Shown here: positions 11,503 through 30,900 of the stretch, piece by piece
Layout of the letters: each line of letters starts with the position of its first letter
How positions within the stretch are numbered: position 1 is the first letter of the stretch
Origin: a bacterium
Lineage (GTDB): Bacteria > Electryoneota > JAOADG01
Length of the DNA stretch: 64,000 bases
Assembly (NCBI GenBank): GCA_963681965.1
Contig: OY820579.1
Span: 3,392,001-3,456,000 of the forward strand
Direction: 5' to 3'
Program-made: the position numbers and the translations under genes
Notes under the pieces: model-generated
What the model was told of the DNA's origin: nothing
Databases searched by the model: none
Seen by the model: only the letters and a program-made list of their open reading frames with translations

Positions 11503-14435
11503 TGAGTGAGCAATTGCTTGCCTCACTTGCGGCACAACTAAAAAAACTGGGAAGTACCGGCGAAAAAGCCGGTAACCCAACTCCGAAGCTGGTTCCCGGA
11601 GAGCGTCGCGAAATTGCAATCATCTTTCTCGATCTTAAGGGGTTCACGGCACTATCGGAAAAGTTGAACGATCCGGAAGCGATCAATGCGATTATCAACG
11701 GTCCGAGCGGTATCATGACGGTGCTGCATCAGATCGTCGAACGGCATGGCGGTTATGTCGACAAGTACGAAGGCGATCTGATTATGGCACTGTTCGGTGC
11801 GAAAGTCGCTTCGGAAAACGACGCCTACCGCGCCGTTAGTTGCGGCATGAAGTTGATCGAAGCAGTGTTGACGGTGGACGAAGCAGTCTCTGAACTTGGG
11901 ATTAGGATTGGTGCCCGGTGCGGAATCAATTTCGGTTGGGCGACGTTTGGTCCTGATCCATCCGGTCACCACACTGCGATGGGTACGGCAGTCAATGTCG
12001 CATCGCGTATGGAATCGAGTGCGGCGGTCAACAGCGTACAGGTCACCAGCAGGGTCGTGAAAATGACTCACGACAGCTTTATCTGGGAGGATCTCGGCGG
12101 TATCGAAGTGAAAGGTGTGGCAAAACCGGTCCACTCTTATCGACTGATCGGCTACGGCGATATTCATAAAGCGCGCTGGGAGCGGACATCGTGGATGCAG
12201 TCGGTACCATTGATCGGACGTCAGGACGAATTCGATTTTCTTTACCAGCATTGGTTATCGCTCGAAGAAGAAGTCGAGGAGAATCCCCGTGGTGGTGCGA
12301 TCCACAAGATGATTGGATTGCGTGCCGATCCCGGGTGCGGTAAATCGCGATTGGTGTTCGAATTGGTGAAGCGAGTCCAGCAAGAAAATGAGATAACATT
12401 CTTGCGCGGTCACACGATGTCGGTGGCACAACCACCGTTTTATCTCTGGGCGAATCTGTTGCGCAATTTCTTCCGGATTGTCGACGATAAACATGAGCAT
12501 ACCCGGTTCGAACAACTCTATACGGAATTCGGCTCAGCCTATGGATTGACGGATAATGCCGATTTCAACAGTTGTTATCCTTATCTATGTCATATCCTCG
12601 GATTTCATGTCGAAGAATTGTCGGAACTGGCAGATCGCGTTTTATTTCAGCAAACGAAGATGGCAATCCGCAATTTCATGCAAGTACTGGCACAGCAACT
12701 GCCGAAGCTGGTGATCTTCCTCGACGACCTGCACTGGCTCGATTCCGGATCGCAGGAAATTCTCGAATTCGTGCTGCTGAATTGCGATGCCACGCGACCG
12801 ATGTTTATCCTCACGACATTTCGACCGGATCGCGACGACGGTCAGCAGTTGGAATTGGATCTTCACGATTCGTATGTCGAATACCATGAGCGGATGCTGA
12901 CACCATTGACGCTGGAGCTGACGCACCAGCATGTGAAAGCGATGCTGGCGGCTTACAGCCCTAATACCGAAGCGTGCGATCTCGATCCAGTCGTGGTGGA
13001 GCGGATCTTCGACTTCTCGCAAGGTAATCCATTTTATACGGAAGAATTTGTGCTGGATTGGCTTGAGACCGATGCCTTGCAATTGAATGAGAACTGCTGG
13101 TCGCTGGCGCCGAACCATCACGGCGATCTCCCGAACAGCATTACCAGTTTAGTTCGGTCGCGGGTCGATCGACTGCCGCTGGAAGAGAAGCAAGTATTGC
13201 AGCAATGTTCGGTCATGGGACTGGATTTCTCGCTGCGGTTATTCCAACGGGTGAAGGCGAAGCTGGCGCAATCGGATAATGCCGAGCCACTGTTGAATGG
13301 ATTGGTGTTTCGCGATTTTCTCCGCAATGTTCGATCGTTGAAAGAAACCTCATACAAATTCAAGCTGACAATCTCGCGGACGGTCGCCTACCAGACACTA
13401 TTGCGGGAGAATCGCACACTCTTGCATCGCCTGACCGCCGAAGCGCTGGAAGAGCTGCTCGCGACCGATACCGATTATTACGCCGGAGTCTTGGCGGAAC
13501 ACTGGTTCCATGCCGGTGATCTGAACAAGGCGTTCGATTACGGTATTCGGTCGGTGAAATATTTACGACGAGCGTGGCACAATCGCGAAGCGGTCAAGCT
13601 GGGTGAGGCGATCCTGAATTGGTTCCCACCACACGACGATTATCGCCAGAATCCACACGCACAAACATATTTCGATTTGATTTATCAGCTCGAAACGATC
13701 TATGCGATCCTGGGCAAGCGAACCGAGCAGAAGCGACTGCTCGATCAATTGCAGGAATTCGTATTGATCCCGCCATTCGACGACCATGCCGCAGCAATCG
13801 TGAATCGGATGGGAAATTATCATTATTTAACCGGTGATATTTCGGATGCTGCCGAGTGTTACGAGCTGTGTCGGGAAGTGGCACAGGCGCGTGGCGATAC
13901 GAAGATTGCAGCGCAAGCGATCGGAAATCTCGGATTGATCTCGATTCAATTCCGTCGTATCGACGAAGCCGAAGCGCTCCTGAAACAATCGATCGAGATG
14001 TTGCACTCGATCGACGATCAGCACGCGGTGAATGATTTCGAGTTGAATCTCGCCGGGTTGTTTTACGAGAAGAAGGAACCGGCGGAAAGCGAGCGCTTGC
14101 TGGAACAATGCCGGGAGCGGTCGAAACGACTGCACGATCGGAGCGCCGAAGCGCGGTTATCGATCAATCTCTCAACGCTGAATCTAGAATTGGAGCAATT
14201 CGATTCAGCGATCGAAAATGCGACGATTGCATATCGTATCTTCAACGAAATCGGGGAACGAAAGAGCGAAGGGGTTGCGTTGGCTAATTTGGGGCGCGTC
14301 TATTTGCGAAAGGAGAATCGGGAAAAGGCGCGCGAGTGTCTCGAACTTGCGTTGACGATCCACCGCGAAGTGAACGACAGCAGTGCGGAAAAACGAACAC
14401 TTAAAAATTTAACCGAATTGAGTGGCAATACTTGA
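11502..14435 (+). CDS. Class III adenylate/guanylate cyclase - STAND/AAA ATPase - TPR protein (copy 1)
   Basis: Cyclase motifs FLDLKGFT, DKYEGD and TAMGTAVNVASRMES; Walker A ADPGCGKS; Walker B IFLDDLHW; C-terminal TPR-like helices. ATG at 11502 overlaps the upstream TAA (TAATG), with SD GGAGG at 11491-11495. No TM segment seen. Confidence 0.92.
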   Translation: MSEQLLASLAAQLKKLGSTGEKAGNPTPKLVPGERREIAIIFLDLKGFTALSEKLNDPEAINAIINGPSGIMTVLHQIVERHGGYVDKYEGDLIMALFGAKVASENDAYRAVSCGMKLIEAVLTVDEAVSELGIRIGARCGINFGWATFGPDPSGHHTAMGTAVNVASRMESSAAVNSVQVTSRVVKMTHDSFIWEDLGGIEVKGVAKPVHSYRLIGYGDIHKARWERTSWMQSVPLIGRQDEFDFLYQHWLSLEEEVEENPRGGAIHKMIGLRADPGCGKSRLVFELVKRVQQENEITFLRGHTMSVAQPPFYLWANLLRNFFRIVDDKHEHTRFEQLYTEFGSAYGLTDNADFNSCYPYLCHILGFHVEELSELADRVLFQQTKMAIRNFMQVLAQQLPKLVIFLDDLHWLDSGSQEILEFVLLNCDATRPMFILTTFRPDRDDGQQLELDLHDSYVEYHERMLTPLTLELTHQHVKAMLAAYSPNTEACDLDPVVVERIFDFSQGNPFYTEEFVLDWLETDALQLNENCWSLAPNHHGDLPNSITSLVRSRVDRLPLEEKQVLQQCSVMGLDFSLRLFQRVKAKLAQSDNAEPLLNGLVFRDFLRNVRSLKETSYKFKLTISRTVAYQTLLRENRTLLHRLTAEALEELLATDTDYYAGVLAEHWFHAGDLNKAFDYGIRSVKYLRRAWHNREAVKLGEAILNWFPPHDDYRQNPHAQTYFDLIYQLETIYAILGKRTEQKRLLDQLQEFVLIPPFDDHAAAIVNRMGNYHYLTGDISDAAECYELCREVAQARGDTKIAAQAIGNLGLISIQFRRIDEAEALLKQSIEMLHSIDDQHAVNDFELNLAGLFYEKKEPAESERLLEQCRERSKRLHDRSAEARLSINLSTLNLELEQFDSAIENATIAYRIFNEIGERKSEGVALANLGRVYLRKENREKARECLELALTIHREVNDSSAEKRTLKNLTELSGNT

Positions 14436-14880: not shown

Positions 14881-15974
14881 TATACCATTTCTTGAAAATC
14901 GTGTCGCATTGTGATTTACTCTCACACTCGTGTTACAGATTTTACAATTTCTGGTTGATTGAGTAGCTGTTGTATTGCCCATGTTACCCGATCTCTTAGT
15001 TCTTCTCTGGACTTGCTGTACCAATGGTTGAAGTAATGCTCTTTGATATACAACCACAATCGTTCTATCGGGTTGAGATCGGGTGAATAGGGTGGCAAGA
15101 ATATTGGTTGAATATGATGCCAGTTTAACGATTTAATCTTGTGCCAACTGGCATTGTCCAGCACCATTGTTACCCTTTCGCCCTTGGTATATTCGGCGAA
15201 GTGGTCAAGGAAAATCTGGAACAGTTCCCGATCCACTTCCGGCATTTGCAGCGAAAACAACCGACCGGATAAGGGTTGTACCGCGCCCAAAATGTTTTCC
15301 CGCAAATGGGTGCCGGTAAAGGGAACCGTTTGTCGTTCTCCTTTCCGCATCCAGCGTCGGCGCGGGCGTGGATCGCCGGTAATGCCGCTTTCGTCGTAGA
15401 ACCAAATCCGATTGGGATCGCTGGCAAGCAGCGACGACAGCAGTTCTGTGAAAGCCAACCGGGCCTCGGCATCCTGTTTTGCCGGCCAGGATCGCGGCAT
15501 ATTCAAGGCAAATCGTTCATCGCGAACAAGACGGGCGAGCGTGGAATAGCCCAATTCGATGCGTAGTTCGCTACGCAATACGCCATGCAACTTGCGTAGT
15601 GTCCAGTGTGTCTGTCCGTGCTGCTCGGGATGGGTAAGCCAATCGACAACCAGAAACCGTTGTTCTTTGTTAGCTTTGCGCGGTCGTCCCGGTCGCGGTA
15701 TCCGTTTCAAACGGTCAATGCCACCGGCGTTCCAATGCTGAACCCACCGCTGTAAAGATCGCGGTACAACCGACAACACTTGACAAACTTGATTGTCCGG
15801 TAACCCTAACAAGAGCATTTTAATCCCTTGAAAGCGACAGTGCTCGTCATGGTCAACCGAACAACGAAGGGCTTCTTCGATCTCGTCCAAAGTACCATTC
15901 GCAGGATTAGGAGATAAAGGTCGCATGAAATAAAGATAAGAAACAATGCGACACTATTTATGAGAAACGGTATA
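14881..15974 (-). mobile_element. IS630-family insertion sequence with ~30-bp imperfect terminal inverted repeats and TA target duplication
   Basis: Left end TATACCATTTCTTGAAAATCGTGTCGCATTGT (14881-14912); reverse complement of right end TATACCGTTTCTCATAAATAGTGTCGCATTGT (15943-15974); TA at both outer ends. Confidence 0.9.
14922..15926 (-). CDS. IS630-family DDE transposase (single intact frame)
   Basis: N-terminal HTH and RPGRPRK; WFYDESG, VLDNASWH and LPPYSPDLNPIERLW (DDE_3 signature). Confidence 0.95.
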   Translation of the reverse strand: MRPLSPNPANGTLDEIEEALRCSVDHDEHCRFQGIKMLLLGLPDNQVCQVLSVVPRSLQRWVQHWNAGGIDRLKRIPRPGRPRKANKEQRFLVVDWLTHPEQHGQTHWTLRKLHGVLRSELRIELGYSTLARLVRDERFALNMPRSWPAKQDAEARLAFTELLSSLLASDPNRIWFYDESGITGDPRPRRRWMRKGERQTVPFTGTHLRENILGAVQPLSGRLFSLQMPEVDRELFQIFLDHFAEYTKGERVTMVLDNASWHKIKSLNWHHIQPIFLPPYSPDLNPIERLWLYIKEHYFNHWYSKSREELRDRVTWAIQQLLNQPEIVKSVTRV

Positions 15975-16062: not shown

Positions 16063-19000
16063 TTACGCTGATCCGATTGGTTTCTTAAACGTGTCTAGCG
16101 TATCTCGAACCTTTATTGCTAATGTTTGGATTGAAAAAGGCTTCTGGATAAAATTTACCCCTTTATCGAGAACTCCATGATAAGCTATCACATCTGCTGT
16201 GTATCCAGACATGAATAAATACTTCAGATTGTCGCGATGTGCGATTAATTTCTTTGCAAGATCTCTGCCATTTAAATTCGGCATGACTACATCGGTAATA
16301 AGCAAATGGATATCTTCTTCGAATTCCTCGGAAAGTTGAATCGCATCAAGCGGTTTCGATGCAATTAACACCCGATAGCCAAGTTGCTCAAGCATTAGCT
16401 TTGTCAGGTTCAAGATCGTTGGCTCATCTTCCACGAGCAGGATCGTTTCGTTACCGTTAGGCGGAGGAACAAGTGAATCGTTTTCTATCTTCGACGATTT
16501 GCTTACATATCTCGGTAAATAAATTTTAAAAGTTGTTCCCAATCCTGGTTCACTATATACATTGATAAATCCATTGTTCTGCTTGACAATACCATACACT
16601 GTTGCTAGACCAAGACCAGTACCTTTGCCAATATCTTTAGTTGTATAAAACGGTTCAAATAGTTTTTTTAATACTTCTTTGTTCATCCCACAGCCATTAT
16701 CGCTGACGGTCAGCAGGACAAATTCTCCACTGACTGCCTCCGGATGCTCGGAACAATAAAAATGATCGACGAGAATTGTATGTGTTTCGATCGATATTTT
16801 TCCGATATCATTGATTGCATCTCGAGCATTGACACAAAGATTCGCCAATATTTGATCGATCTGCGAAGGATCGATATTTACCTGCCATTCCGCTGCTCCC
16901 GGTAACCAAGTAAGATCGATATCTTCACCGATTAATCGTCGCAGCATCTTCAGCATCCCTTCCACAGTCTCATCCAAATTGAGAACTTTGGGATTGACCG
17001 TTTGCTTACGTGCGAACGCCAGCAGTTGATGCGTTAGATTTGCCGAACGTTCGGCTGCTTTCTGAATTTCATCTAAATTGGCAATAACACGATTAGGCTG
17101 ATCAATTTGGCTCAGAGCAATCTCCGAGTGTCCTAAAATTACCCCAAGCATATTATTAAAATCATGCGCAATTCCACCAGCCAATTGACCGATCGCTTCC
17201 ATCTTTTGTGCTTGTCGAAGCTGTTCTTCCAGACGTTTATGTTCAGTGATATCTTCTTTTACAGCAACAAAATGAGTGATCGTACCCGATCCGTCAAAAA
17301 TCGGTGATATCGAAGCAAACTCCCAATAGAGTTCGCCATTTTTTTTCTTGTTATGGAATTCTCCGCGCCACTCCATTCCAGAAGTAATCGTATCCCACAA
17401 CCGTTTGTAGGTTTCCGGCGATTGTTCACCCGATTTTAACAGTCGAACGTTTTTTCCGATGACTTCCGACTGTAAATATTCGGTTATCTCGGTAAATTTT
17501 GGATTGACATACTCGATATTTCCGATAGTATCCGTAATCACAATGGAAGCCGGACTTTGTTCGACTGCATGGGATAGTTTTCGCAGTGATTCCTCGGCAT
17601 GAATTCGCTCAGTAATGTTTTCGACGATTCCTTCCAGAAACGCCGGGTGCCCCACAGCATCGAATACCAGTTTTACATACAAATTGACAGTAAATTCAGT
17701 TCCATCATTTTTTCTGAATTGGGTTTGAAATTGGATATTATTCGTCGAATTCAGAAGCTGCGCGATTACTTGGCGACGATCTTCGGTATGGACATACACT
17801 TGCTTGCCGATATCCTGGATTTCGTGGATTACCGTGTCGGGCGAAACAAAACCTAACATCTGAGCCAACGACGTATTCACTTCGAGAAATCGACCTTCGA
17901 TTGTGGAGCGAAAAATCCCCAGTGGAGAGTTATTGAATATTGTTCGATACTTTTCTTCACTTTCGCGAAGTGCTTCTTCAGCGTGTTTTCGCTCAGTGAT
18001 ATCGCGACCGATCGCCATTGCACCGATTATTATATCATCGTTGTTGTACTCCGGAACGAATCGAATGTTAAATGTTTGGCTCTCACATGAAGAATTTCTA
18101 GTATTGAGTTCCAATTCGTCAGAAAGACCACTGTCAATCACTTTTTTGAGTTTTATAAAGTACTGATCAAGATCGTCGGACAAAGGATGTTGTTCCGAGA
18201 GATTTTCTGGTGGTAAAAACCCTTCAAATGATAGAATTGAACTCAAGTTACGATTGTTATAAACCTCTTGACACAGCGTATTGTACCGGACTATGATATC
18301 AGGCGAACTTTCCGCAAGCGATCGATACTTATGTTCACTTTCAATTAGTTTTTGTTCGGCTTGTTTGCGTCTAGTGATATCACGGGTTATTGTAATTATT
18401 CCTGACGGATGGAGTTGACTATCCCGCACGAACGATGCCGCGAGTTCAACCCATTTCGTCGATCCATCCTTACAATACTCCTCAAGTTCAAGTAATACTG
18501 TTCTCGATGGATCGACATTTCCGGATTGTTCCAATACCATTTGATCGGAATAGACTGATTGCACCTTTTGTAGCGAAGCAGGAGTCAAAATCCGATCCAA
18601 CGATTCCGATAATGCTTCTTGAACAGTAATACCACGTAATTTCTGAATCGACGGACTGACAAAAACCGGCTTCAGATTCATGTCAAATACCGATATCGTA
18701 TCGGCAGTGTTATCAGCAATCAGTCGGTAACGGTCTTCACTTTCGCGGATTGCTTGTTCCGCAAGATCTTTCTTCGCCCTTACTCGCAATGCAGTTATTC
18801 CAAAAGTCAAATCACCGGCTAGCTCTTTCAAAGTGTTTACTTCTTTTAAATTGAATGCATTGGGTACTGATGAATAAACGCTCAGAGTACCAATCGTCTC
18901 ATTTTCACCAATCAGTGGCATTACTACCATCGATTTACAACCTTGTTTACTCAATGTCTTTTGCCACGGCTCGGTAAACAATTGCGATTCGAAATTATGC

Positions 19001-20070
19001 TCGACAAATGGGTTTCCCGACGCAATGGAAATTTGCACTGGACCCTGATTGGGATCGAGATCGGCAAAATTCACTCGATTAGAAATCGAATTTTCATTAT
19101 TGAATTCGCTCTGCGCGACTATATGCATCGTATCGATGTCATCGTGCTCAATGTAATCGACTCGCGCATATAGGTAATCCCCGACTTCAACAACAATCCG
19201 GCATACTTCCGTCAATAGCGATTGTTCATCGCTAAAGTGAATTAAAGCTTGATTGGAGGCACTTAGCATATGTAGCGTACGATTTACTCTGAGTAATTCA
19301 TCTTCAATCAATTTCTGGTCTTCCAAAAGAGACAGTAACGCCCGTCTGGATTGCTCGGATTTGTCCAATAGCGATTGAATTTGTTCCTCGTTTCTTCGCA
19401 ACTCTGCGTTGGCGAGTTTTAGATGTTCAGTTCGATCAGCAACTGTTTTTTCCAGTGCGGTATTGGACAATTTTAATTTTTCATCTAGCGCCTTCCGGAT
19501 TTCCATTTCCTTTTCGAGATCGTCATACGCTTTTTTCAACTGGGTATGCCCATGGATCTCATGTTTCAAGACAAGTGCGACATAGTTGAAAAATGTCGGT
19601 AATTGTTGAGCTAACTCTTGCATCGATAAGTGCAGACTCTCGATTTTGAGCACACCGATTAAATCGGTTCCGACTATCAGCGGTACTATCCAGGTATATG
19701 CTTTGGAAAATTCTGGTGTGAGCATACGGGTATCACTGAAAGTATGTTCAAACTCAAGCGGTTCGTGAGTATCGAATACTTGTTTAACACGATCATCATC
19801 CAGAGTCTCGATTTGTTTTTTGATCCCTGCGATGTCGACATAATTTAAAATCTGATCGATGTGGTAGATGAGTACTAGATTTACTCCACCGATCACATCG
19901 CCGATCGCATGCAAGATGTTCTCAACGGTATTCTCTAATCCCGGTACGGAGCTGATCCGATTCATCAGTTGAATGATCAACTGAAGATTCGATTTTTCTG
20001 CAGCAAGCTTGTTGAGCCGATCTTCTAGATTTACAAGCTTTGACTGTGAATTATACTTATCGTTGATCAT
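16063..20070 (-). CDS. Cytoplasmic hybrid sensor histidine kinase/response regulator (2 GAF, 4 PAS, HisKA, HATPase, REC)
   Basis: H-box LAGGIAHDFNNML, N-box NLCVNARDA, DNGCGM, FEPFYTTK, GTGLGL; REC LLVEDE..LITDVVMP..FIQKPF; PAS ends DITERK. Confidence 0.95.
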   Translation of the reverse strand: MINDKYNSQSKLVNLEDRLNKLAAEKSNLQLIIQLMNRISSVPGLENTVENILHAIGDVIGGVNLVLIYHIDQILNYVDIAGIKKQIETLDDDRVKQVFDTHEPLEFEHTFSDTRMLTPEFSKAYTWIVPLIVGTDLIGVLKIESLHLSMQELAQQLPTFFNYVALVLKHEIHGHTQLKKAYDDLEKEMEIRKALDEKLKLSNTALEKTVADRTEHLKLANAELRRNEEQIQSLLDKSEQSRRALLSLLEDQKLIEDELLRVNRTLHMLSASNQALIHFSDEQSLLTEVCRIVVEVGDYLYARVDYIEHDDIDTMHIVAQSEFNNENSISNRVNFADLDPNQGPVQISIASGNPFVEHNFESQLFTEPWQKTLSKQGCKSMVVMPLIGENETIGTLSVYSSVPNAFNLKEVNTLKELAGDLTFGITALRVRAKKDLAEQAIRESEDRYRLIADNTADTISVFDMNLKPVFVSPSIQKLRGITVQEALSESLDRILTPASLQKVQSVYSDQMVLEQSGNVDPSRTVLLELEEYCKDGSTKWVELAASFVRDSQLHPSGIITITRDITRRKQAEQKLIESEHKYRSLAESSPDIIVRYNTLCQEVYNNRNLSSILSFEGFLPPENLSEQHPLSDDLDQYFIKLKKVIDSGLSDELELNTRNSSCESQTFNIRFVPEYNNDDIIIGAMAIGRDITERKHAEEALRESEEKYRTIFNNSPLGIFRSTIEGRFLEVNTSLAQMLGFVSPDTVIHEIQDIGKQVYVHTEDRRQVIAQLLNSTNNIQFQTQFRKNDGTEFTVNLYVKLVFDAVGHPAFLEGIVENITERIHAEESLRKLSHAVEQSPASIVITDTIGNIEYVNPKFTEITEYLQSEVIGKNVRLLKSGEQSPETYKRLWDTITSGMEWRGEFHNKKKNGELYWEFASISPIFDGSGTITHFVAVKEDITEHKRLEEQLRQAQKMEAIGQLAGGIAHDFNNMLGVILGHSEIALSQIDQPNRVIANLDEIQKAAERSANLTHQLLAFARKQTVNPKVLNLDETVEGMLKMLRRLIGEDIDLTWLPGAAEWQVNIDPSQIDQILANLCVNARDAINDIGKISIETHTILVDHFYCSEHPEAVSGEFVLLTVSDNGCGMNKEVLKKLFEPFYTTKDIGKGTGLGLATVYGIVKQNNGFINVYSEPGLGTTFKIYLPRYVSKSSKIENDSLVPPPNGNETILLVEDEPTILNLTKLMLEQLGYRVLIASKPLDAIQLSEEFEEDIHLLITDVVMPNLNGRDLAKKLIAHRDNLKYLFMSGYTADVIAYHGVLDKGVNFIQKPFSIQTLAIKVRDTLDTFKKPIGSA

Positions 20071-21113
20071 TTCTTCACAACTTTCTCGACACTACCAAAT
20101 TCGAACGCAGCTTCAAGCATTGTTCGAATATTCTTCTCGGGAATACAGTATGGCATGACTCCCGTTCCGAAGAGAAATTTGCCTCCGGGCAAACCAGCCT
20201 CAATGATCCTTTTTACTTCGCTTCGGATAATTTCCCGAGACCAGTCAATGAGTCGGATGTCATTGATGATACCACAAGTAAGCGCTCGCCCTGCAAGGAT
20301 CGTCTTACTTTCAATAATATCGTCGAAAGGTCCTAAATAATATGCTTTGATGCCCGTTCGATCGATGACCTGAGCAATTATCGGGTTGAGTTGTGATGTT
20401 CCGGCATAATACACTAATCCCGGTACGCCAGCACCTTGAACATCTTTCTCAATCCATGGCAGCGAAACCTCCTGGAAAAACCGAAATGGAACGGTATCAG
20501 TCGAACCGAACGGGTTGGAATAAACCAGTACATCGGCTCCAGCGTTGCGATAGGCAACAATCTCTTTCACAAAAAAATCATGACACTTGTTTAACAGCTC
20601 ATCACGTACGGTTACCGGTCCCCAAAAGAGCAATTCCATCCATTTGTCCATGCCCATTAATATTGCCGGTAACGACATCGAGGAAGTGATGTAGGCACAG
20701 ATCGGATACTTGCCGCCGACCTCTTTTTTAAGAATATGGAGGCATTTCAGACCTTCCGCGAATGCGGGATGAGATGTTAAATCGTCCGGTATCTGAAGAT
20801 GAAGGATATCGTCATATGAGTTGATTACCCATTCTTCGACATTCGGTGGTCCATCGTTAGAAAAAAGTATTTTTCGGCAGCCCAGCAATTCCGCTTCTTT
20901 ACCAACGTAAAAAAGACTCCAGACATTGTCGTAACCATATTTCTCGCGCATTGCAAGTTGAGCCGTAGCAACTAATTCGCCATCATTGTAATATTCCTTC
21001 AGCGCTATTCCCAACTCTTTCGCACCTTGATCCAGCAAATTGCAGAATACTGGAATTCGATCGATAATTGAACCATCGATTGCGGCTGTGAGACGTTCCA
21101 TTCCGGTTGTCAT
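20067..21113 (-). CDS. Uroporphyrinogen decarboxylase / MtaA-CmuA methyltransferase-family TIM-barrel protein (Zn-ligand motif apparently missing)
   Basis: N-terminal MTTGMERLTAAIDG..DRIPVF, AQLAMREKYGYD, GADVL and C-terminal FLFGTG.MP...PEKNIRTM resemble the URO-D/MtaA family; adjacent to a corrinoid protein. Confidence 0.85.
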   Translation of the reverse strand: MTTGMERLTAAIDGSIIDRIPVFCNLLDQGAKELGIALKEYYNDGELVATAQLAMREKYGYDNVWSLFYVGKEAELLGCRKILFSNDGPPNVEEWVINSYDDILHLQIPDDLTSHPAFAEGLKCLHILKKEVGGKYPICAYITSSMSLPAILMGMDKWMELLFWGPVTVRDELLNKCHDFFVKEIVAYRNAGADVLVYSNPFGSTDTVPFRFFQEVSLPWIEKDVQGAGVPGLVYYAGTSQLNPIIAQVIDRTGIKAYYLGPFDDIIESKTILAGRALTCGIINDIRLIDWSREIIRSEVKRIIEAGLPGGKFLFGTGVMPYCIPEKNIRTMLEAAFEFGSVEKVVKK

Positions 21114-21781
21114 GACTGCACCTCATGAATGAGTTTGGTGATTACCTTTCCGGCACTTATTCCGTCCGCAGCCCACGCATCGGCTTTTACCTGTAGAAAG
21201 AGATTTGGATCGAAGCGGAAAGCCGCTCCTCCCACGATAATTTTTATTCGATGTTCGAGATCCATTTCTTTGAGAATTTGTCGAACCTTCAAACAACCAT
21301 TTTCACCGCGAGCAGTGTGTACCATCATTGCCGAAATACCGATAACTTGAGCATCGTGAGTTAACGCTTCTGAAACGAAACGCTCAGCCGGCACGTTGAC
21401 ACCCAAATCGAAGCACTCGATCATTTGTGCCCGAAGGCAACCCATTACAATTTTCTTACCAAGTGTATGAAGGTCGCCTTGCGCATTACCGATTACAATT
21501 CGACCTATGGTTTCAAACGGTTTTTGAAATAATGGTATCAATTCATTCGAAATTTCAGATACGATTTGTGAAATCATGAAGTACTGTGCAAGGCTCATAT
21601 CGATAGTCTTATTAGCAATTGTTACTTTTAACTCTAATGCGGGTATGATTGCTTCGAAAACGATCACCTCAGGCAAGATTCCTTCTTCCAAAGCTTCACG
21701 AACGACCCGGATAGCTTGGTTTCGATTCGTGTCGATTAAAGCTTCGTTGAATGAATCAATGAGTTTCTGTAGCCGATTCAT
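21110..21781 (-). CDS. Cobalamin (B12)-binding corrinoid protein, MtaC/MtbC-like
   Basis: Helical cap followed by GDLHTLGKKIV (DxHxxG), DLGVNVP, GISAMM and IVGGAAF motifs. Confidence 0.92.
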   Translation of the reverse strand: MNRLQKLIDSFNEALIDTNRNQAIRVVREALEEGILPEVIVFEAIIPALELKVTIANKTIDMSLAQYFMISQIVSEISNELIPLFQKPFETIGRIVIGNAQGDLHTLGKKIVMGCLRAQMIECFDLGVNVPAERFVSEALTHDAQVIGISAMMVHTARGENGCLKVRQILKEMDLEHRIKIIVGGAAFRFDPNLFLQVKADAWAADGISAGKVITKLIHEVQS

Positions 21782-22830
21782 TATTGACTCTGATATTTAG
21801 GGGGTTCTTTTATTCGAAGTAACAATTCATTTACTTCCTGTTTTAAATCTAGAATACGCTCTTCTCGATTCAGCGTAACATCGGACCACCGTTGCAATTC
21901 ATCGAAGCGTTTCTGGAGTTCGATCTCGGAACGTCTGCGATCGGTGATGTCTCGAACTACCGCCAGCACTTCCTCGGTCGACAATGCGATGATGCGTGCC
22001 TCGTAATAACATCGTTGACCTTTCATAATCAGATCGTACTCAAAAGTCACGACTTCGTTTACATTATGCGCTCTATCGATAGCTTCCGACGCTAATCTTG
22101 ATACTTCCGGTGGCAATATGTCGTAGTAGGTTTTATATAAAAATTTGTTTGGAGGAACATATAGTTCCATATTTTCAGGTTTTCGGTAATCGGTGATAAC
22201 GCCGTCTTTCGCGATGCGAAACAAAAGATCCGGAACAGCATTAATGATCGCGCGGTTTTCAACTTCGCTTTTACATAGATTCTGGAATATCAGCAAACTG
22301 GTTAACGAATCGCATAGACGATGACCAATCTCATCGAATAATCTTTCTTCCTCCGGTGACCAAATCCGCGCGTAAGCGCACTGATGAATTCCAAAAACCC
22401 ATGGTTTTCCAACCTTTGGATAAAGCGTCGAAGCTATTTGCGATTGAACTGCAAATCCATCGGCGATCGAAGCAGGAATTTGACTCTCTAACTTCTGACT
22501 GAATTTCACCGGTGTACTTGAAGACAGCAGCGATCGGAATACTTGTACCGTTTCCAGATCGGTCGGAATCTCGATACCGATTGCAAATGCCCCAGGATAT
22601 TCCGGACGGGTGCGTTCCATCGGTACACTCCAAGTCACGGTATCAGGGTCACACGGATAAACCAGCCAGGCGCGGTCGCAGCTGAAAATCGACAATACTT
22701 CATCGAGCACATTGTGCATCATCTGTTCAAGATCGTTCACACCCTGTATCGCTCGATTGATTCGATCCATGCTCTCGTAGAAACACAATTCACTGATCTG
22801 TACATCCTGGGATAGCATTTTTTCCCCCAT
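21781..22830 (-). CDS. GAF-PAS protein with C-terminal coiled coil and no output domain
   Basis: GAF (CDRAWLVYP..WVFGIHQCAYARIWSPEE), PAS (AVPDLLFRI..VRDITDRR), tail ELQRWSDVTLNREERILDLKQEVNELL. Confidence 0.85.
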   Translation of the reverse strand: MGEKMLSQDVQISELCFYESMDRINRAIQGVNDLEQMMHNVLDEVLSIFSCDRAWLVYPCDPDTVTWSVPMERTRPEYPGAFAIGIEIPTDLETVQVFRSLLSSSTPVKFSQKLESQIPASIADGFAVQSQIASTLYPKVGKPWVFGIHQCAYARIWSPEEERLFDEIGHRLCDSLTSLLIFQNLCKSEVENRAIINAVPDLLFRIAKDGVITDYRKPENMELYVPPNKFLYKTYYDILPPEVSRLASEAIDRAHNVNEVVTFEYDLIMKGQRCYYEARIIALSTEEVLAVVRDITDRRRSEIELQKRFDELQRWSDVTLNREERILDLKQEVNELLLRIKEPPKYQSQ

Positions 22831-22989: not shown

Positions 22990-23469
22990 TCATACAGCAA
23001 TACTGCTGGTACTGGTAATGATGTCGATATCTTCCTTGTTTGATAAAACACGATCGATGTCCAGTAGGAGAATAACGTGCTCCTTCATTTTTCCGATTCC
23101 AGTAAGAAATGAACTGTCGAATCCATTTCCCCAATTGAGCGGCGGTTCGATATTGTTGGGATCGATATTCAATACTTCGGTAACGCTATCAACCATCATC
23201 CCAATTTGAATTTCCTTGAAATCGACAACTACGATACAGGTTTCTTCCGTTGCGTTTACAACCGGTAATCCAAATTTCGCTCGCAAATCCACAACAGGAA
23301 TCACTTTGCCGCGTAGATTCACAATACCCAATATGTACTGTGGTGTTTGAGGCACCTTAGTAATAGTCATTAGTTTGATTATTTCCCGCACTTTCAAGAT
23401 TTCAATGCCGAATAATTCAGCGGCAATTTGAAATGTGAGAAATTTGCCAATTGGCGGTGGATTGATCAT
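22990..23469 (-). CDS. cheW: Chemotaxis coupling protein CheW
   Basis: FGIEILKVREII..ITKVPQTPQYILGIVNLRGKVIPVVDLR..GMMVDSVTEV; SD GAGGAG upstream. Confidence 0.95.
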   Translation of the reverse strand: MINPPPIGKFLTFQIAAELFGIEILKVREIIKLMTITKVPQTPQYILGIVNLRGKVIPVVDLRAKFGLPVVNATEETCIVVVDFKEIQIGMMVDSVTEVLNIDPNNIEPPLNWGNGFDSSFLTGIGKMKEHVILLLDIDRVLSNKEDIDIITSTSSIAV

Positions 23470-23521
23470 GACATACTCCTCGATATTACAAACAAGCTTC
23501 TACTTGTTGTATTGGTATTTA

Positions 23522-26518
23522 TTAAAAATCTCGTAAATCGGCTTCTTCGAGTTGAACGATCTCATTTGGACGAACCAGACGCGAAGTATTTCGATTTGGA
23601 GTTTGCCCTAATAAATTGCGACGATCTCGCGACGATGGTTGAACCGACAGCGATTGTTTCCGTGCCATATTGATCGTTCCATTGTGTCCGTTGTGTCCAT
23701 TGTGATCAAATCGACCTTGTCTGGAAAGATGAAAGGATTCAATAAGACTTCTTTCTTCGTCGGCTTGACTTGACATCGTTTCGGCAGCACTAGCCGATTC
23801 TTCGCTATTCGCGGCATTTTCCTGTGTCACGGCATTCAACTGTGAAACAGCCGTTGCGACTTGATTAATCCCTTGCGATTGCTCCTTCGAAGCCACAGCA
23901 ATACTTTCGGCGATTCCGTTTACATGGGTGATATCTTTCAGAATTTCGACAAAATGCTTTGCAACAGTGCTGGTAATCTGCACTCCTCCTTCGGCATTCT
24001 TGCGGGATTCTTCGATTAACTCCGAAGTATTCTTTGCTGCAGCAGCACTTCGTTGAGCAAGATTGCGAACTTCTTCCGCAACAACTGCAAATCCCTTCCC
24101 GGCTTCTCCGGCACGTGCAGCTTCCACTGCGGCATTGAGAGCCAGCAGATTTGTTTGGAACGCGATTTCGTCGATGGTTTTAATAATCTTGGCTGTTTGA
24201 TCGGCTGACTGTTTGATCTTTCCGATTTCCTTCGTCATCTGGTCGACTGCTTGATTGCCTACTTGCGCATTGTGAAGAGTGTTATCCAATAACGACTTGG
24301 CATCTTGCGAGCTGCTGGCATTTTGCTTGGTCATTGCCGACATTTCCTCAAGCGTTGCCGAGATTTCTTCCAACGACGATGCCTGTTCCGATGCACCTTG
24401 TGCCATCATTTGACTACCCCTGCTAACTTGCTCGGCACCGGTCATTACCTGTTCCACTGCTACTTGAACCTGTTGTAATCCATCATCAAGATTTCCAACT
24501 GCGGTGTTAAGGGCTTCCTTGATACGCGCGTAGTCACCCCGGTATTCACCATTCATACGAGCTGCCAGATCCTTTTCGGCGATTCGTTCCAATACTCTCG
24601 TGGCTTCATTGATCGGGTTGGTGATTGCATCCAAGACCGCATTGATGCCCTGCACCATATCCTTGAAGCTGTAAGAGAATTTCATTGCATCGCCACGAGC
24701 TGCCAACTCTCCAGCTTGTGCTTTCGCGACCAAAGTGATGATTTCATCGTTTAGCGAAAGCATATTGGCTTTTACGTGATCGATAGCTTCGGTAATTCTT
24801 GCTTTTTGTCCCGGTAACCGATCCATATCGATCGAAAAATCACCTTGCGCATATTTACCTACAACTTCCACAACACGCATCTTAACAGAAATATGGGATT
24901 GAACAAGTTTATTGATGCGCAATGCCATTTCGGCATAGGAGCCTTCGAATTTCGATACCGGCATTTCGAAATCGAGTGCTCCCTTATCGTGTTGTTGTGA
25001 CATTTCAGCCTGCGCCAGCAATAAATTGTTCAAGGTGTCGATGCATTGATTCAGATTGTTCTTAATTGTATTGAAATCACCATAGTAAGTATCGGTGATC
25101 TTCGGTGGAATACTGCCGTGAGAAATCTTGTCGACGTAATCGGCTGCGACATTCAACGGATTGATCACAGCATCCAGTGTATCGTTCACGCCCTGAACGA
25201 TCTTGCGGAAGTCGCCTTGATGCTTCGAAGCGTCGGCACGCGTTGCCAATCGACCGGCTACGGCTGCTTGAGCCAACATATTGGCATCTTCAACCATCAG
25301 ATTTACCGCGATAATCGCTTGGTTCAGGTTATTCTTTATAACATTGAAGTCACCGTTGTAATTGTCACTGATTTTCATTGGAATATTGCCTTTCGAAATT
25401 CTGTCGACATAATCGGCGGCGATATTCAATGGACCGATTACGGCATCTAATGTATCGTTGACACCTTGAACGATTGCTTTGTAACCACCTTGGAATCGTT
25501 GCGTATCGCCACGTGTACTTAATCGACCTTCGACAGCAGCTAAGGTGAGTAACTCGGCTTCTGCTACCAATCCCTGTAAATTAATGACGGTTTCATTCAG
25601 AGCCGGAGCGATTTCATCTTGTTGATCGGCAGGTGGAATATTTACTTTCAAGTCACCATGACTGATTTTCTTCAATCCATCGACTAGATTGACGAGTCGA
25701 TCGGTAAACGAATCCATGGCTCGTGCTAAAATCCCGATCTCATCACCTTGTGTCATATTCAATCGTGCTTGAAGATGACCTTTCTCCATTTCTTGCATCA
25801 TTTCCAAACCCTTTTTGAGAGGTCGAGTGATGCTTATCGTTAGAATTGACCCTAAGACCAGCGCGAGAATGGCATCGAAAATAATCAACATCCACGTGTT
25901 TCGAGACCCACGCTCTGCAATAACATCGGCATTGGCACAGAATTCATCGATCTGTTTCTCGTTCAACGAACAAATTGCATCCAAATGCGCTGTTACACTG
26001 TTGCGCAGTGGTCGAATATCTTCGCCCATCTTCCAAATCTGTTTATCGACTTCTTCAATCCGAGACGCATTCTTTTTAGGATCGCTGTTGATTAACTCGT
26101 CGCGATTGTGATTAATCGCGATAAACTTGTCATCAAGTAATCGCCATACTTTCACTACCGGTAACATCTGTTCCCACTCCTGCTTCTCTTCGGGAGAATG
26201 TGAATATTTTTCGTAATTGGTTTTCGAATCTTCGAATTTCTTCCAGCAGGTTTCCATTTTACCATACTGCGAGAATCGCTCCTCGCCAACCATTCGCCTA
26301 AGCATCAACGCTCGTTCTTTTGTGTTCAGATCGTACAGTGCCGATTGCATTTTAAGCGCCGACATTGAACTTGGAGTTAGTTCGGATCCGACTTTATCAA
26401 GTGCCGACATCGTCGAATTTTGAACCGACCCTGCGTAAAAACCTACAACAATCGTAATGACAACGATGGCGACAAAACCGGCTATCAGTTTCGTTCCAAT
26501 TTTCACAATGCCTAGCAT
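23522..26518 (-). CDS. Methyl-accepting chemotaxis protein (four-helix-bundle sensor, poly-HAMP, MCP signalling domain)
   Basis: Two TM segments, repeated HAMP-like units, hairpin [40 protein letters not shown]; SD AAGGAG. Confidence 0.95.
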
Positions 26519-27339: not shown

Positions 27340-27984
27340 TTAATTGTTTCCTGTTGAATTGCCGATTAATCCGTGATCCAGCGCATAACGCACCATCTTT
27401 ACGTCGTTGTCGACATGAAACTTTTCCCAAATTCTGGTGTGGTACGTACTCACGGTTTTTGGACTGATAAACAATTCATCGGCAATCTCCTTAATTGACT
27501 TTCCGGACGAGAGAAGCTGTAATACAGCATACTCGCGATCGGTTAATTCGGTATGCGAATGCTGAGTCGCGTAACTAATTTCCGCTGCAAGACGCTCAGC
27601 GGTTGCAGCACTGACGTATCGCTCGCCATACAGTATTTTCTTGACAGCTTTGTACAATTCTTCCGGTGCTGTTTGCTTATTTAAAAAACCGTTCGCTCCC
27701 AATTTCAACACCCGGATCGCCAATTGTTCCTCCGGAGCACTACTTAAAACCAGTACGGGTAGTTTCGGATACAAGCGCCGAATATCCAGCAAAACATCGA
27801 GTCCGCTTCTTCCAGGCATAAAAATATCCAAAACTAAAATGTCCCAACTTTGTTGCGACAAGCATTCCAACGTTTCAGCAGAATTTCCCGCTTCGCCGAA
27901 TTGAGCATCAGGATATTTATCGACTAGAATCTGAATTAGACCTCTCCGTAATAATTGGTGATCGTCTGCGATTAAAATCTTCAT
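27340..27984 (-). CDS. NarL/LuxR-family (UvrY-like) DNA-binding response regulator
   Basis: ILIADDHQLLRRGL, LVLDIFMPGRSG, FLNK; HTH LTDREYAVLQLLSSGKSIKEIADELFISPKTVSTY. Confidence 0.95.
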   Translation of the reverse strand: MKILIADDHQLLRRGLIQILVDKYPDAQFGEAGNSAETLECLSQQSWDILVLDIFMPGRSGLDVLLDIRRLYPKLPVLVLSSAPEEQLAIRVLKLGANGFLNKQTAPEELYKAVKKILYGERYVSAATAERLAAEISYATQHSHTELTDREYAVLQLLSSGKSIKEIADELFISPKTVSTYHTRIWEKFHVDNDVKMVRYALDHGLIGNSTGNN

Positions 27985-27989
27985 CGTTA

Positions 27990-30900
27990 TTACTCCTGTG
28001 CATCGATCTTGCTATTGAGTGGAACGGACACGTTGATCGTGGTTCCGATTTGTTGCTGACTCGAAATATCAAAATTACCATTCAACAATAAGGCACGTTC
28101 CCGCATTCCCACCAATCCGATCGACATCGGACTATTCAGTATTTCTGTTGATATTCCTCTTCCATTGTCTCGAACAGTAAGCTCGACATGATCGCAAGTG
28201 TGGACCAGTCTAATATCGACCTGAGTCGCGTGAGAGTGTCGCAATATGTTTGTCAAGCTTTCCTGAAGAATGCGGAAGATGGTGGTTGATGAATTTCGAT
28301 CCGGAGACTGTCCCTCTTCTACGATATCGGTGCGACATGCAATCCCGCAACGGGTTTGAAAATCGTGAGCCAACCATTCCACCGCTGCACTTAATCCAAG
28401 ACTGTCGAGAACTGCAGGTCTAAGTTCGGTAGCGATCTCTTGTACCGAACGAATTGCTTCGTCAGTCATTTGACTCATTTCGATGACGCGATTGGCTAAT
28501 GCTTCCATTGAAAAATTCTTCGATGTATCGCTCATTCTTCCATTCAACCATACTAAATCGATTTTTAATCGTGTCAAGATTTGAGATAATACGTCATGAA
28601 TTTCACGAGCGATATGCGTGCGTTCCTCTTCGCGCGCCACTTGCAATCTTGCAGCCAATGTACGCATTTGATGATGGGAAATTCGAAGCTCTTCCTCGGC
28701 ACGTTTGTGTTCGGTGATATCGCGCGAGATGCCGATAAGTCTAGAAACACGTCCGGTTTCGTCCTTTGCCGGTATTATGACCGATTGAAAACAATGTCGT
28801 CCGCTAGGAAGATCCAATTCAACTTCTTCTTCTATCGGAAGTTCTGTTTCCACACACCGACGGTATTTGGCATTAACGATGGCAGCAACTTCAGGTGGAA
28901 CAGTTTCCTCCTGAGTCTTCCCAACGGAAAAAGATCGGGGAATCCCGGTAGATCGCTCGAGAGCGGGATTAACTTCAACGGTGCGGAATCGTCCGTCATC
29001 GGTTACATCAATCAAGTATAAACTGTCGAGAACATTGTCGAATATATCGCGATACCGTCGTTCACTCTCGCGAATCGCTTCTTCGGCATGCTTGTGTTCC
29101 GTGATATCGCGAAGGAACATGACCAGTTGTCCACTTTCGATGTCGTGATATTTTACACTAACTTCAACATCGAAAACACTGCCATCCCTGCGACGATGTC
29201 TAGTTTCAAAGCGATCTTCACCTTGTTCGATAACCTTGCGAATATGAGTGGCAACATCACTTTTTGATTCGACATCTTCGAGGTCGGAAATGCTCATCTT
29301 GAGGAGTGTAGACTCATTAAAGCAGATCATTCGGCAATAGGCATCGTTGACTTTCAATAAACGACCGGACAAATCCGTCATCCAGAAACCATCCATTGCA
29401 GTTTTGAGGATTGTGCTGTAGAGTCTTTCACTCCGAAGCAGCGCGTTTTCGATCCGTTTACGCTCGGATATGTCCTCGACAATTCCGTCAAGGAAAAGAA
29501 TCCGACCTTCGGTATCGCATACTTTTTTTAAGTAAAGATTGGCGTCGAATTGACTTCCATTTTTTCTGCGGTATTTGTTTTGGATCTGAATCGATTCGTC
29601 CGAGTGAAATAATCGGTCGATTATTAGACTGCGGTCAGTTTCATTCGCATATACTTGTTTGCCGATATCGTGAATTTCATGAATTACCGTTTCGGGTGAA
29701 TCGTAACCGAGCATGTCGGCAAATGCCGGATTGACTTCAAGAAACTTTCCTTCGATTGTCGACCGGAAAATTCCGAGGGCTGAATTCGTGAATATTGTTC
29801 GATATTTTTCTTCGCTTTTGCGTAACTCTTCTTCAATTTGTTTATGATCGGTGATATCTTGCAACGAACCAAAAAGCCGCCGAACATTTCCGACGGAATC
29901 GAATTCAGCATGTCCTCGAGCCAAACATATTCTCATTTCACCGTCAGTTCGGAAAGCGCGTAGTTCCAACTCGTAAGGTGTTCCATCCGACAATGCCTTC
30001 GCTACGGCTACTTTCAACTGAACCATGTCTTCAGGATGGTAGAGTTCGGGATGTTCTGCAAAGGATGGGGCTTTTCCCGCTGGGTTACGATCAAATATCC
30101 GATACAATTCTTCCGACCAAGTCACTGAGTCGGTTGCCACTTCCCATTCCCAACTCCCAATATGTGCAATACTCTCAGTTCGCTCCAGCATAATTTGTTT
30201 ATGCTGAAGTGTTTCTTGAGATAGATCGTTTTGTGCTCTCATTCGCAGAGAAGTGATTCCAAATGCCAGATCGCCAGCAAGTTCCTCAAGCAATCGAATT
30301 TCATCAGGAGTAAATGTATTGGGTTTTGAAGAATAGATATTGAATATTCCAAAAGTAAGATTGCGTTCGTCTTTGAGCGGTAGTGCAATACTCGAGCGGT
30401 AATTCTGTTTCAGCGCATTGTCTCGCCAAGGACCAGCGATCGGATCGGAGTCGAAATCTTGAATGGTCGCGGTTGTTCCACTACGGATCGCCATTCCACT
30501 TGGTCCATTTCCTCGTTCAGTTGCTGCCCAAGACAATTTTGCTCGCTTAAGAAAGCCATCCTCAGCTCCAGCACAACTGACTACTTGTATTGACTTTGCT
30601 TCGTCATTAACAGGATATCCGACCCAAGCCATGCGGTAACCAGCTTCGTCGCACACAATATGGCATATTTCGCTAAGTAATGTTGCTTCGTCTTTCGCGC
30701 GAACCAAGATCTGGTTGCAATTGCTGATTGCACGCAACTCGCGATTCAATAGGTGTAAAGCTTCTTCAGCTTGTTCTTTTTTTGCTTTAGTTCGTAAAGT
30801 CGAGATGCCAAATCCAAGGTCACCTGCCAACTCGACTAAAATATCAACCTCATTTTTATCAAAGGAATTTTTATTGGCAGAGTAGATACCTAGCGCACCG

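Follow-up and report, generated by a model that had tools for sequence, protein, structure and literature searches.

What is a corrinoid protein doing in one operon with a histidine kinase? The question is raised by a segment of contig OY820579.1 (assembly GCA_963681965.1, lineage Electryoneota), of which we analyzed 64,000 nucleotides, positions 3,392,001 to 3,456,000 (hereafter the window). Four open reading frames (ORFs) called on the minus strand follow one another at positions 16063..22830: P0001 (21781..22830, 349 amino acids (aa)); P0002 (21110..21781, 223 aa), a corrinoid protein with a probable helical cap and a Rossmann-like B12 domain; P0003 (20067..21113, 348 aa), an MtaA-like protein of UroD fold that lacks the H-x-C...C zinc site; and P0004 (16063..20070, 1335 aa), a hybrid kinase. 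The genes overlap at each junction (TAATG for P0001/P0002, ATGA for P0002/P0003 and again ATGA for P0003/P0004), as a preliminary description of this DNA had reported. The same description proposed that the methyltransferase pair, P0002 and P0003, acts as the sensor of the kinase. Our comparison of sequences across genomes leads to a broader reading, to which we give a probability of roughly 0.6: the operon would be a minimal version of a widespread and previously undescribed corrinoid-based sensory module. No published description of such a cassette was found in the literature covered, which excluded subscription journals and bioRxiv supplements.

The argument begins with recurrence. A survey limited to one genome per species gave 54 loci from many phyla, and components were counted by tblastn with several queries each, only in loci with enough flanking DNA. 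The corrinoid gene lies directly upstream of the UroD-like gene in all 50 loci scored. An activator of the RACo/RamA type, with 2Fe-2S, RACo middle and ASKHA domains, is encoded upstream of the corrinoid gene in 40 of 48 loci, a DUF1638 gene directly follows the UroD-like gene in 44 of 49, and next downstream, in 47 of 49, comes a protein whose N-terminus is homologous to residues 1-200 of P0004 (hereafter the N-domain). In locus L021 the place of the N-domain protein is taken by an HD-GYP protein with a P0001-like GAF domain, and in L006 the N-domain gene lies another 5 kb along. Eight loci lack RACo in cis; they are the closest relatives of the window's cassette, and RACo was found elsewhere in all five such genomes that we checked. 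Among five genomes without DUF1638 in cis, two encode it elsewhere and three, of unstated completeness, show none. The window's cassette follows the core of the pattern: neighboring genes encode, in this sequence, a corrinoid protein, a UroD-like protein of the YYCG/FGTG type and the N-domain. Pairwise identities of the UroD-like, corrinoid and N-domain proteins are correlated (r 0.77-0.85), which points to inheritance as one unit, a matter of co-inheritance and not of contact. Fusions joining UroD to DUF1638, UroD to RACo and the corrinoid protein to UroD also occur among representative proteins.

The N-domain and the UroD-like subfamily keep company at the scale of whole genomes as well. In a sample of 121 genomes from the order to which a Methylomonas carrier belongs, the N-domain is present in 14, the UroD subfamily in 15 and neither in 106, and every one of the 14 N-domain genomes carries the UroD subfamily about 0.1-1.3 kb away. 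Three further carrier genomes have exactly one N-domain each, at the cassette. To see what else surrounds the cassette we ran Pfam on 137 flanking ORFs, each standing for one similarity cluster, of 180-1100 aa and from outside the cassette; three ORFs above this length (L009:4732-7794, L033:1431-4445 and L017:11529-14414) were left out. None of the 137 representatives matched a substrate:corrinoid methyltransferase (MT1), a pterin-binding/folate methyltransferase or MtrH. In the window itself, a Pfam scan of the interval from about 11.5 to 40.3 kb, which covered ORFs of 110 aa or more, turned up no MT1, and the earlier statement that none is present holds for the ORFs of that interval. Homologs of the pair thus adjoin a dedicated GAF-type input domain and not metabolic methyltransferase operons. 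This result and the missing zinc ligands of P0003 (see below) bear out in part the proposal that the pair serves as the sensor of the kinase; two of the arguments offered for it, discussed below, proved weak or wrong. For the rest, the flanks hold unrelated housekeeping or signaling genes, many of them of chemotaxis or two-component systems. The chemotaxis parts include CheB, CheR, CheD, a CheW-receiver protein and four methyl-accepting chemotaxis proteins (MCPs), in several unrelated loci (L004, L022, L032, L035, L039, L044, L049, L053), and the window echoes this with a CheW gene and a gene for a 998-aa, many-HAMP MCP just upstream of the operon (22990..26518, minus strand).

The N-domain of P0004 (19471..20070, minus strand) is the cassette-specific input domain, and consists of a long helix, a divergent GAF domain and a second long helix. 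Residues 1-280 of P0004 match no Pfam family, the GAF profile included. The assignment comes from structure prediction: an AlphaFold2 (AF2) model built from a 42-row alignment, with a predicted local distance difference test (pLDDT) score of 84.5, has a helix-GAF-helix architecture, its top Foldseek matches are all GAF domains (PDE5A, Nlh1, NifA; expectation value (E) 1e-6 to 1e-4), and its ESM Atlas neighbors are GAF clusters (score 0.97). One relative also has a faint Pfam match to GAF_3 (E 7e-5). As modeled, then, residues 1-200 have a divergent GAF fold. The window's N-domain differs from its relatives at none of 21 conserved columns, a conserved column being one identical in at least 90% of the other alignment rows. 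In relatives the N-domain sits directly on HisKA (for example in L044, a kinase of 542 aa, and in L032 and L051) or ahead of PAS domains. Outputs vary: of 28 N-domain proteins scanned, 25 are HisKA/HATPase kinases, often with receiver and Hpt domains, two have a PAS-GGDEF-EAL-CZB architecture (L020, L023) and one has no recognized output (L005). Other signaling proteins of the cassette are the L021 HD-GYP protein, which has the different, P0001-like GAF, and a DUF1638-GAF-PAS protein in L010. A constant input domain joined to changing outputs is the signature of a sensor domain.

The remainder of P0004 (16063..19470, minus strand) is conventional, with a canonical GAF domain (residues 281-425), a PAS array (about 434-951) and an output part, in the same interval, made of HisKA and HATPase_c (961-1187) and a receiver (1210-1321). 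Pfam recognizes GAF, three to four PAS, HisKA, HATPase_c and Response_reg, the last two at 75.4 and 59.7 bits; HisKA scores 26.0 bits, just below its cut-off of 26.9. By its HisKA, HATPase_c and receiver domains, P0004 is classed as a hybrid histidine kinase. One member of the PAS array (residues 832-941; 17248..17577, minus strand) scores like the PAS1 domain of NifL (152 bits) and also like the LOV and YtvA families, and reads GKNVRLLKSG, with Val in place of the photoactive Cys of LOV domains. It could be a flavin redox PAS and a second input to the kinase.

P0002 matches the Pfam B12-binding domain at 79.2 bits (cut-off 32.1) and has the His-on motif D103-L-H105-T-L-G108, so that the B12 ligand described earlier as intact (DLHTLG) is indeed in place. 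All 40 corrinoid proteins in the alignment have the motif D-x-H-x-x-G, its D, H and G being invariant. The cap domain (B12-binding_2) scores 22.5 bits against a cut-off of 23, and the nearest NCBIfam family, TIGR02370, which comprises the cognate corrinoid proteins of methyltransferases, gives a score below its cut-off (81.3 against 215.3 bits). The best match to a solved structure is the corrinoid protein 1y80, over the full length; 8j2y, a B12-binding GGDEF protein, is also among the matches. P0002 does not resemble a CarH-type photoreceptor. The cap motif of these proteins is W-x9-E-H, and it is present in none of the 40 aligned corrinoid proteins of the family; P0002 has no further domain, and its score against the NCBIfam CarH family is 26.8 bits for a cut-off of 400.

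P0003 belongs to the UroD superfamily (Pfam URO-D, 136.2 bits). Its nearest NCBIfam family is MtaA/CmuA (TIGR01463, mtaA_cmuA), at 90.2 bits and below the cut-off of 235.4; against the MtaA and MtbA equivalogs it reaches about 70 bits for cut-offs of 400-600. The only solved structure that its sequence matches is MtaA (4ay7, E 4e-13; 21% identity). The AF2 model (pLDDT 93.9) is predicted to be a TIM barrel of the UroD type, closest in Foldseek to MtaA 4ay7 (template modeling (TM) scores 0.83/0.86), with true HemE decarboxylases at about 0.8. We considered that P0003 might itself be such a decarboxylase, given that HemE structures are nearly as close as MtaA, and rejected this identity because the protein is invariantly paired with a corrinoid protein and with RACo. 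Around P0003 there is a tight, sharply bounded subfamily that, judged by identity, is conserved across phyla. At E up to 1e-5, P0003 has more than 1300 matches in public data; the 120 closest of these are 67-76% identical and labeled Verrucomicrobia, Geobacter, Omnitrophota, Chloroflexi, Nitrospirae and others, and identities within the subfamily span 51-76% across phyla. Among representatives clustered at 50% identity, full-length matches fall at 49-64%, followed by one at 38% and then by values of 33% or less. The window's P0003 differs at 4 of 128 conserved columns, the median of the set. The only longer fused form encountered was a tandem double UroD protein (P0274), and the lack of any signaling-domain fusion is weak evidence coming from this search. 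A UroD-PAS protein (P0135, UroD residues 4-239) is truncated, possibly by an assembly artefact, and was not used.

In MtaA, the zinc that activates a thiol is held by H-x-C and a distal Cys. This H-x-C...C motif is visible in 4ay7 and in representatives of the HxC type. When P0003 is aligned with 4ay7 by phmmer, Y235-Y236-A237-G238 falls under H-I-C-G and F315-G316-T317-G318 under P-G-C-G. A MAFFT alignment with about 15 HxC-type representatives gives the same register for the His and the first Cys, again with YYAG, and shifts the distal Cys by one or two columns, where the window has G or V. Neither His nor Cys occupies the ligand positions in either register, and F313-P321 holds no Cys; the zinc site is therefore absent from P0003, and the earlier assignment of YYAG and FGTG to the zinc positions of MtaA survives proper alignment. 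The family consensus is V-Y-Y-C-G ... FGTG. Its Cys is kept in 116 of 123 close homologs and replaced by Ala in only 3 of the 123, the window's P0003 aside; four genome loci have Gly there.

Loss of zinc had been taken as a sign that the enzyme was repurposed, an argument that we cannot maintain. According to the accessible portion of the report on the chloromethane dehalogenase CdmBCA of Acetobacterium dehalogenans (PMC13222342), CdmB is a zinc-free MT I enzyme of the UroD superfamily, with no metal in its structure, that efficiently methylates the Co(I) of a separate corrinoid protein from chloromethane after reduction by an activating enzyme. Since such an enzyme is active, a missing zinc site is not evidence of lost catalysis, and most relatives of P0003 in any case retain the middle Cys (VYYCG). 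CdmBCA and the related MT I enzymes of O-demethylases are among the closest known systems, and CdmB, to which we liken P0003 by described properties and not by sequence comparison, is the best available chemical model for what P0003 could do. Differences between the two are clear: Cdm supports growth and includes another methyltransferase, which passes the methyl group to tetrahydrofolate, whereas the cassette has no second methyltransferase nearby and has a sensor for a neighbor. The second weak argument was the missing activator. In the window the observation is correct, and extends to the whole genome as described below, but it does not generalize, because RACo/RamA-type activators and DUF1638 accompany most loci and the lack of the activator is peculiar to the window and its nearest relatives. 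Genetic evidence shows that a split B12 methionine synthase needs both a DUF1638 protein and a RamA-like protein (PMC5764234), and DUF1638 is predicted, in the part of PMC12478193 that is accessible, to help recharge cobalamin. The prevalence of RACo and DUF1638 makes the family look like working cobalt chemistry coupled to signaling rather than a dead enzyme pair, and Co(I) chemistry has probably been kept in the family.

These observations suggest a mechanism. P0003 would dock on the corrinoid protein, as MtaA does on MtaC, and would move a methyl group between a small molecule and cobalt. If zinc-free CdmB is a guide, the transfer would most likely run to Co(I) from a donor that does not depend on a Lewis acid. 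The GAF N-domain would read the state of the corrinoid (Co(I), Co(II) or methyl-Co(III)), or the complex of the corrinoid protein with P0003, and would signal through its flanking helices to the GAF/PAS array and on to the kinase core; the phosphoryl group would end on the C-terminal receiver of P0004. In relatives, RACo and DUF1638 would reset the cobalt. With no RACo in its genome, the window's copy would need another reductant or would register an event that runs in one direction only, for instance oxidation, methylation or B12 loading. The stimulus could be a methyl donor without need for a Lewis acid, a compound that oxidizes Co(I), B12 or light, the last made less plausible by the absence of the CarH cap motif from the family. 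A complex prediction for P0003, P0002 and the N-domain, made with a separate alignment for each, scored 0.01 against a mark of 0.32 and counts neither for nor against binding.

Should this mechanism hold, the cassette would represent a new class of receptor, in which the chemical state of protein-bound B12 is the message, a zinc-free methyltransferase writes it, in most carriers an ATP-driven reductase erases it, and a dedicated GAF domain reads it and relays it to kinases or cyclic di-GMP enzymes; we advance this tentatively, at somewhat short of even odds. To our knowledge, corrinoid methyltransferase machinery is known only from metabolism, and B12-based sensing only as light-driven photolysis or in riboswitches. 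A sensory cassette of this kind would thus be a third cellular use of B12, in which the cofactor serves as a signal that chemistry can rewrite. At oxic-anoxic boundaries such a cassette could register methyl donors (methyl halides, for instance) or oxidants (for instance O2 and N2O); it would give a functional context to DUF1638 and to an orphan UroD subfamily of more than 1300 proteins; and it would imply a stimulus to which methanotrophs, Geobacter, denitrifying Rhodocyclaceae, magnetotactic bacteria and numerous uncultured lineages of groundwater respond.

Several observations weigh against a sensory module or against its working in this organism. The adjacency of the genes would be just as well explained by a kinase that responds to the same small molecule and does no more than regulate the enzymes. 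Related genomes share gene order, and the locus counts overstate independence. Locus L012 has no N-domain gene in its available 2.2 kb, and one of the 121 genomes (G177) has the UroD subfamily (E 2e-169; C1:1515568-1516593) without an N-domain match. The invariant residues of the N-domain include neither Cys nor His. In the window's copy, P0003 has Ala at the position where nearly all relatives have Cys, and P0002 is the most divergent of 39 corrinoid proteins at conserved columns (15 of 84 differ, mostly by conservative changes). The source genome is a single contig, 99.9% complete, and RACo_C_ter has no match anywhere in it; DUF1638 and RACo are both absent in cis. Taken together, the Ala for Cys, the divergent corrinoid protein and the missing DUF1638 and RACo mean that this copy could work differently or poorly.

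How did a cassette of this kind reach the source genome? The window carries a short form, made of corrinoid protein, UroD-like protein and kinase without DUF1638 or RACo in the operon, and it shares this form with loci of the Chloroflexi type (L001, L004 and L008), whose proteins are its nearest relatives. The N-domain and the UroD subfamily occur in only one of 79 genomes of the phylum, the window's own. The GC content of the cassette is 42.7%, for a genome mean of 47.4% (standard deviation 2.5), and lies below that of 96.7% of equal-sized genome windows. Just downstream of the kinase, Pfam identifies an IS630-type transposase (HTH and DDE_3; 14922..15926, minus strand), likely the edge of an acquired segment. 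The single occurrence in the phylum, the low GC content and the adjoining transposase make horizontal acquisition of the cassette likely. Judged from their sequences, the genes show no obvious decay, with all four frames open and the overlaps kept.

The alternative that fares best is that the cassette is a small metabolic or cofactor-handling methyltransferase system, which might for example methylate or demethylate a sulfur, selenium or halogen compound and which the kinase only regulates, the GAF domain binding substrate or product rather than the corrinoid protein. All the enzyme-like parts do come from metabolic families (corrinoid protein, UroD-family methyltransferase, RACo and DUF1638), and identities of 51-76% across phyla are what a working enzyme would be expected to show. 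Precedents exist in the accessible parts of three reports: the need of the split methionine synthase for DUF1638 and a RamA-like protein (PMC5764234), the activity of zinc-free UroD-type MT I enzymes (PMC13222342), and clusters of MtaA-like, corrinoid and RACE proteins without folate methyltransferase that have been proposed to handle methyl-sulfur or methyl-selenide compounds (PMC10418091). Against a metabolic role, each cassette has one methyltransferase-like gene, and a second methyltransferase or a folate or coenzyme M partner is found in none of the 137 flanking representatives. Its outputs are enzymes of cyclic di-GMP, hybrid kinases with Hpt, and HD-GYP proteins; DNA-binding regulators are rare in the flanks of the scanned loci (no systematic tally). 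In the 121-genome sample the N-domain never occurs without the UroD subfamily, DUF1638 is fused to a GAF signaling protein in L010, and a paralogous UroD type is fused to a kinase (P0146, see below). We consider a metabolic system unlikely.

A sensor of B12 availability or of light is somewhat less probable still. Here the corrinoid protein would be the receptor, through cobalamin loading or cobalt-carbon photolysis, and the other parts would rebuild alkyl-cobalamin; a reductive activator together with a methyltransferase is indeed the chemistry needed to regenerate methyl-cobalamin. B12-binding domains sense light in CarH and photocobilin proteins, and 8j2y is among the structural matches of P0002. 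Yet none of 40 family members has the W-x9-E-H cap motif, the source genome lacks the RACo that would rebuild the cofactor, and carriers are, by their labels, mostly organisms of groundwater, sediment and microoxic or anoxic habitats (Geobacter, Nitrospirae, Desulfobacteraceae, Rhodocyclaceae, Magnetococcales, Methylomonas). That the window's cassette is a decaying passenger of horizontal transfer, with genes still open and a sensor no longer working, would agree with its single occurrence among the 79 phylum genomes, its GC content, the adjoining transposase, the missing RACo and DUF1638, the Cys to Ala change and the divergence of P0002, but is improbable given four intact and overlapping frames, a median count of differences in P0003 and none in the N-domain, changes in P0002 that are mostly conservative, and the same short architecture without DUF1638 in L001, L004 and L008, which indicates a lineage and not an accident.

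Comparison with known systems helps to define what a corrinoid-based sensory module would add. A close enzymatic parallel is the MtaA/MtaC/RamA system of methanogens (MtaA solved as 4ay7 and 4ay8), in which a UroD-fold protein also stands beside a small His-on corrinoid protein, and whose ATP-dependent activator of the RamA/RACo type is likewise present in most relatives of the window's cassette. Unlike that system, the cassette has no zinc site and no MT1 partner, is wired to a signaling protein and occurs, in many phyla, in bacteria that are not methanogens. Among published gene clusters, type 1 mlp clusters, described by Kountz and Balskus, come nearest. In the accessible text of their report (PMC10418091), these clusters lack a folate methyltransferase and hold, besides a corrinoid protein and a RACE activator, two or three of the MtaA-like Mlp paralogs; they are widespread without a settled function, occur in obligate anaerobes only, with Firmicutes making up 73% of carrier genera, and are linked to genes of sulfur and selenium metabolism. 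The same text mentions neither a GAF domain nor a sensor, and kinases appear in it only in names of metabolic enzymes. Type 1 calls for Mlp2 and Mlp3 together with RACE, whereas the cassette has one UroD-like gene and its source genome no RACo, which places it outside the type; the cassette adds a dedicated GAF signaling protein and, in most relatives, DUF1638, and it is by gene content that the two are told apart here.

Two kinds of sensors invite comparison as well. CarH, AerR and photocobilin proteins (8j2y) use a B12-binding domain for sensing and not for catalysis, sometimes to drive a diguanylate cyclase. In the cassette, by contrast, sensor and output are separate proteins, the CarH cap motif is absent, and there are methyltransferase and reductive-activation parts that the photoreceptors lack. 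H-NOX proteins are stand-alone cofactor sensors encoded beside their kinases, and here too the cofactor would sit on a protein of its own that controls a cytoplasmic kinase from the same operon. What differs is the cofactor, which would be a corrinoid with its state under enzymatic control, and the receiving part, a dedicated GAF domain.

A second, divergent cassette lies in the same genome about 277 kb away and outside the window (L056:7968-10956, corresponding to G000:C1:3133968-3136956). Its corrinoid protein is 32% identical to P0002 over 157 aligned residues, and its UroD-like protein, of a 'DNHGEIP' type, is 27% identical to P0003 and also lacks H-x-C. The third protein, of 442 aa, contains the genome's only DUF1638, followed by a domain of about 160 aa and a Cys-rich C-terminal module. 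A 747-aa representative protein, P0146, is a fusion UroD-X-HisKA-HATPase_c, in which the UroD part is 51% identical to the UroD-like protein of the second cassette and the middle domain X is homologous to its domain of about 160 aa (E 4e-11). By its domain order, P0146 is a Rosetta-stone link of a UroD-family protein to a kinase, for the paralogous type only. The N-domain profile has no detectable similarity to the X domain, either in the second cassette or in P0146, and the two GAF-like input domains are consequently not demonstrably related. If both cassettes are sensory, at least two parallel types of module would exist, both present in the source genome and the second fused elsewhere directly to a histidine kinase.

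The Cys-rich module of the second cassette has wider distribution. Its pattern is P-x-C-x-x-C-K-x-x-R-D-x-x-G-x-W ... H ... C-x-x-C. In the source genome it stands at the end of five proteins, 388-1019 aa long (near C1:592975, 1838855, 3136777, 4067296 and 4138417), and also ends the DUF1638-GAF-PAS protein of L010 (L010:9648-9836). It matches no Pfam family and may be an unnamed zinc-ribbon-like output module. In L005 (Verrucomicrobiia) a second set of corrinoid, UroD-like and DUF1638 genes comes directly after the N-domain signaling protein of the first (L005:11982-14307), so that two cassette types can share one operon. At the start of the Chloroflexi locus most like the window's cassette, a protein with a MEDS domain, a sensory domain of methanogens, methylotrophs and DcmR, is encoded (L001:61-660).

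The first gene of the operon, P0001, does not belong to the conserved cassette. The protein begins with a GAF-like half, continues with a single PAS domain and ends in a coiled coil; it has no output domain, and Pfam finds PAS_4 only (31.4 bits). Its N-terminal half can be called GAF-like only by proxy, through a 45% identity to the N-terminus of the L021 protein, itself a weak Pfam GAF match (E 5.5e-5). Elsewhere among the 54 loci this domain is found only in L021, at the head of the HD-GYP protein encoded 3' of the UroD-like gene. We rejected P0001 as part of the cassette because the nine metagenome loci that match this domain across some 180 residues (L057-L065) all lack a corrinoid or UroD-like gene in the surrounding 5 kb; another four matches were too short to be informative. 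P0001 and the N-domain of the kinase have no detectable similarity to each other (BLASTP E 0.11; hhalign probability 0.6%). A scan for promoters and terminators gave 23 for 27 expected and 10 for 10.2 expected, no more than chance would give, and these counts do not define the operon. Other signaling genes stand near the region: on the plus strand, an adenylate/guanylate cyclase of 979 aa with AAA and TPR domains (11496..14435), and on the minus strand a 1480-aa sCache-HAMP-GAF-PAS HisKA_3 kinase with a LuxR-type response regulator (27340..32432).

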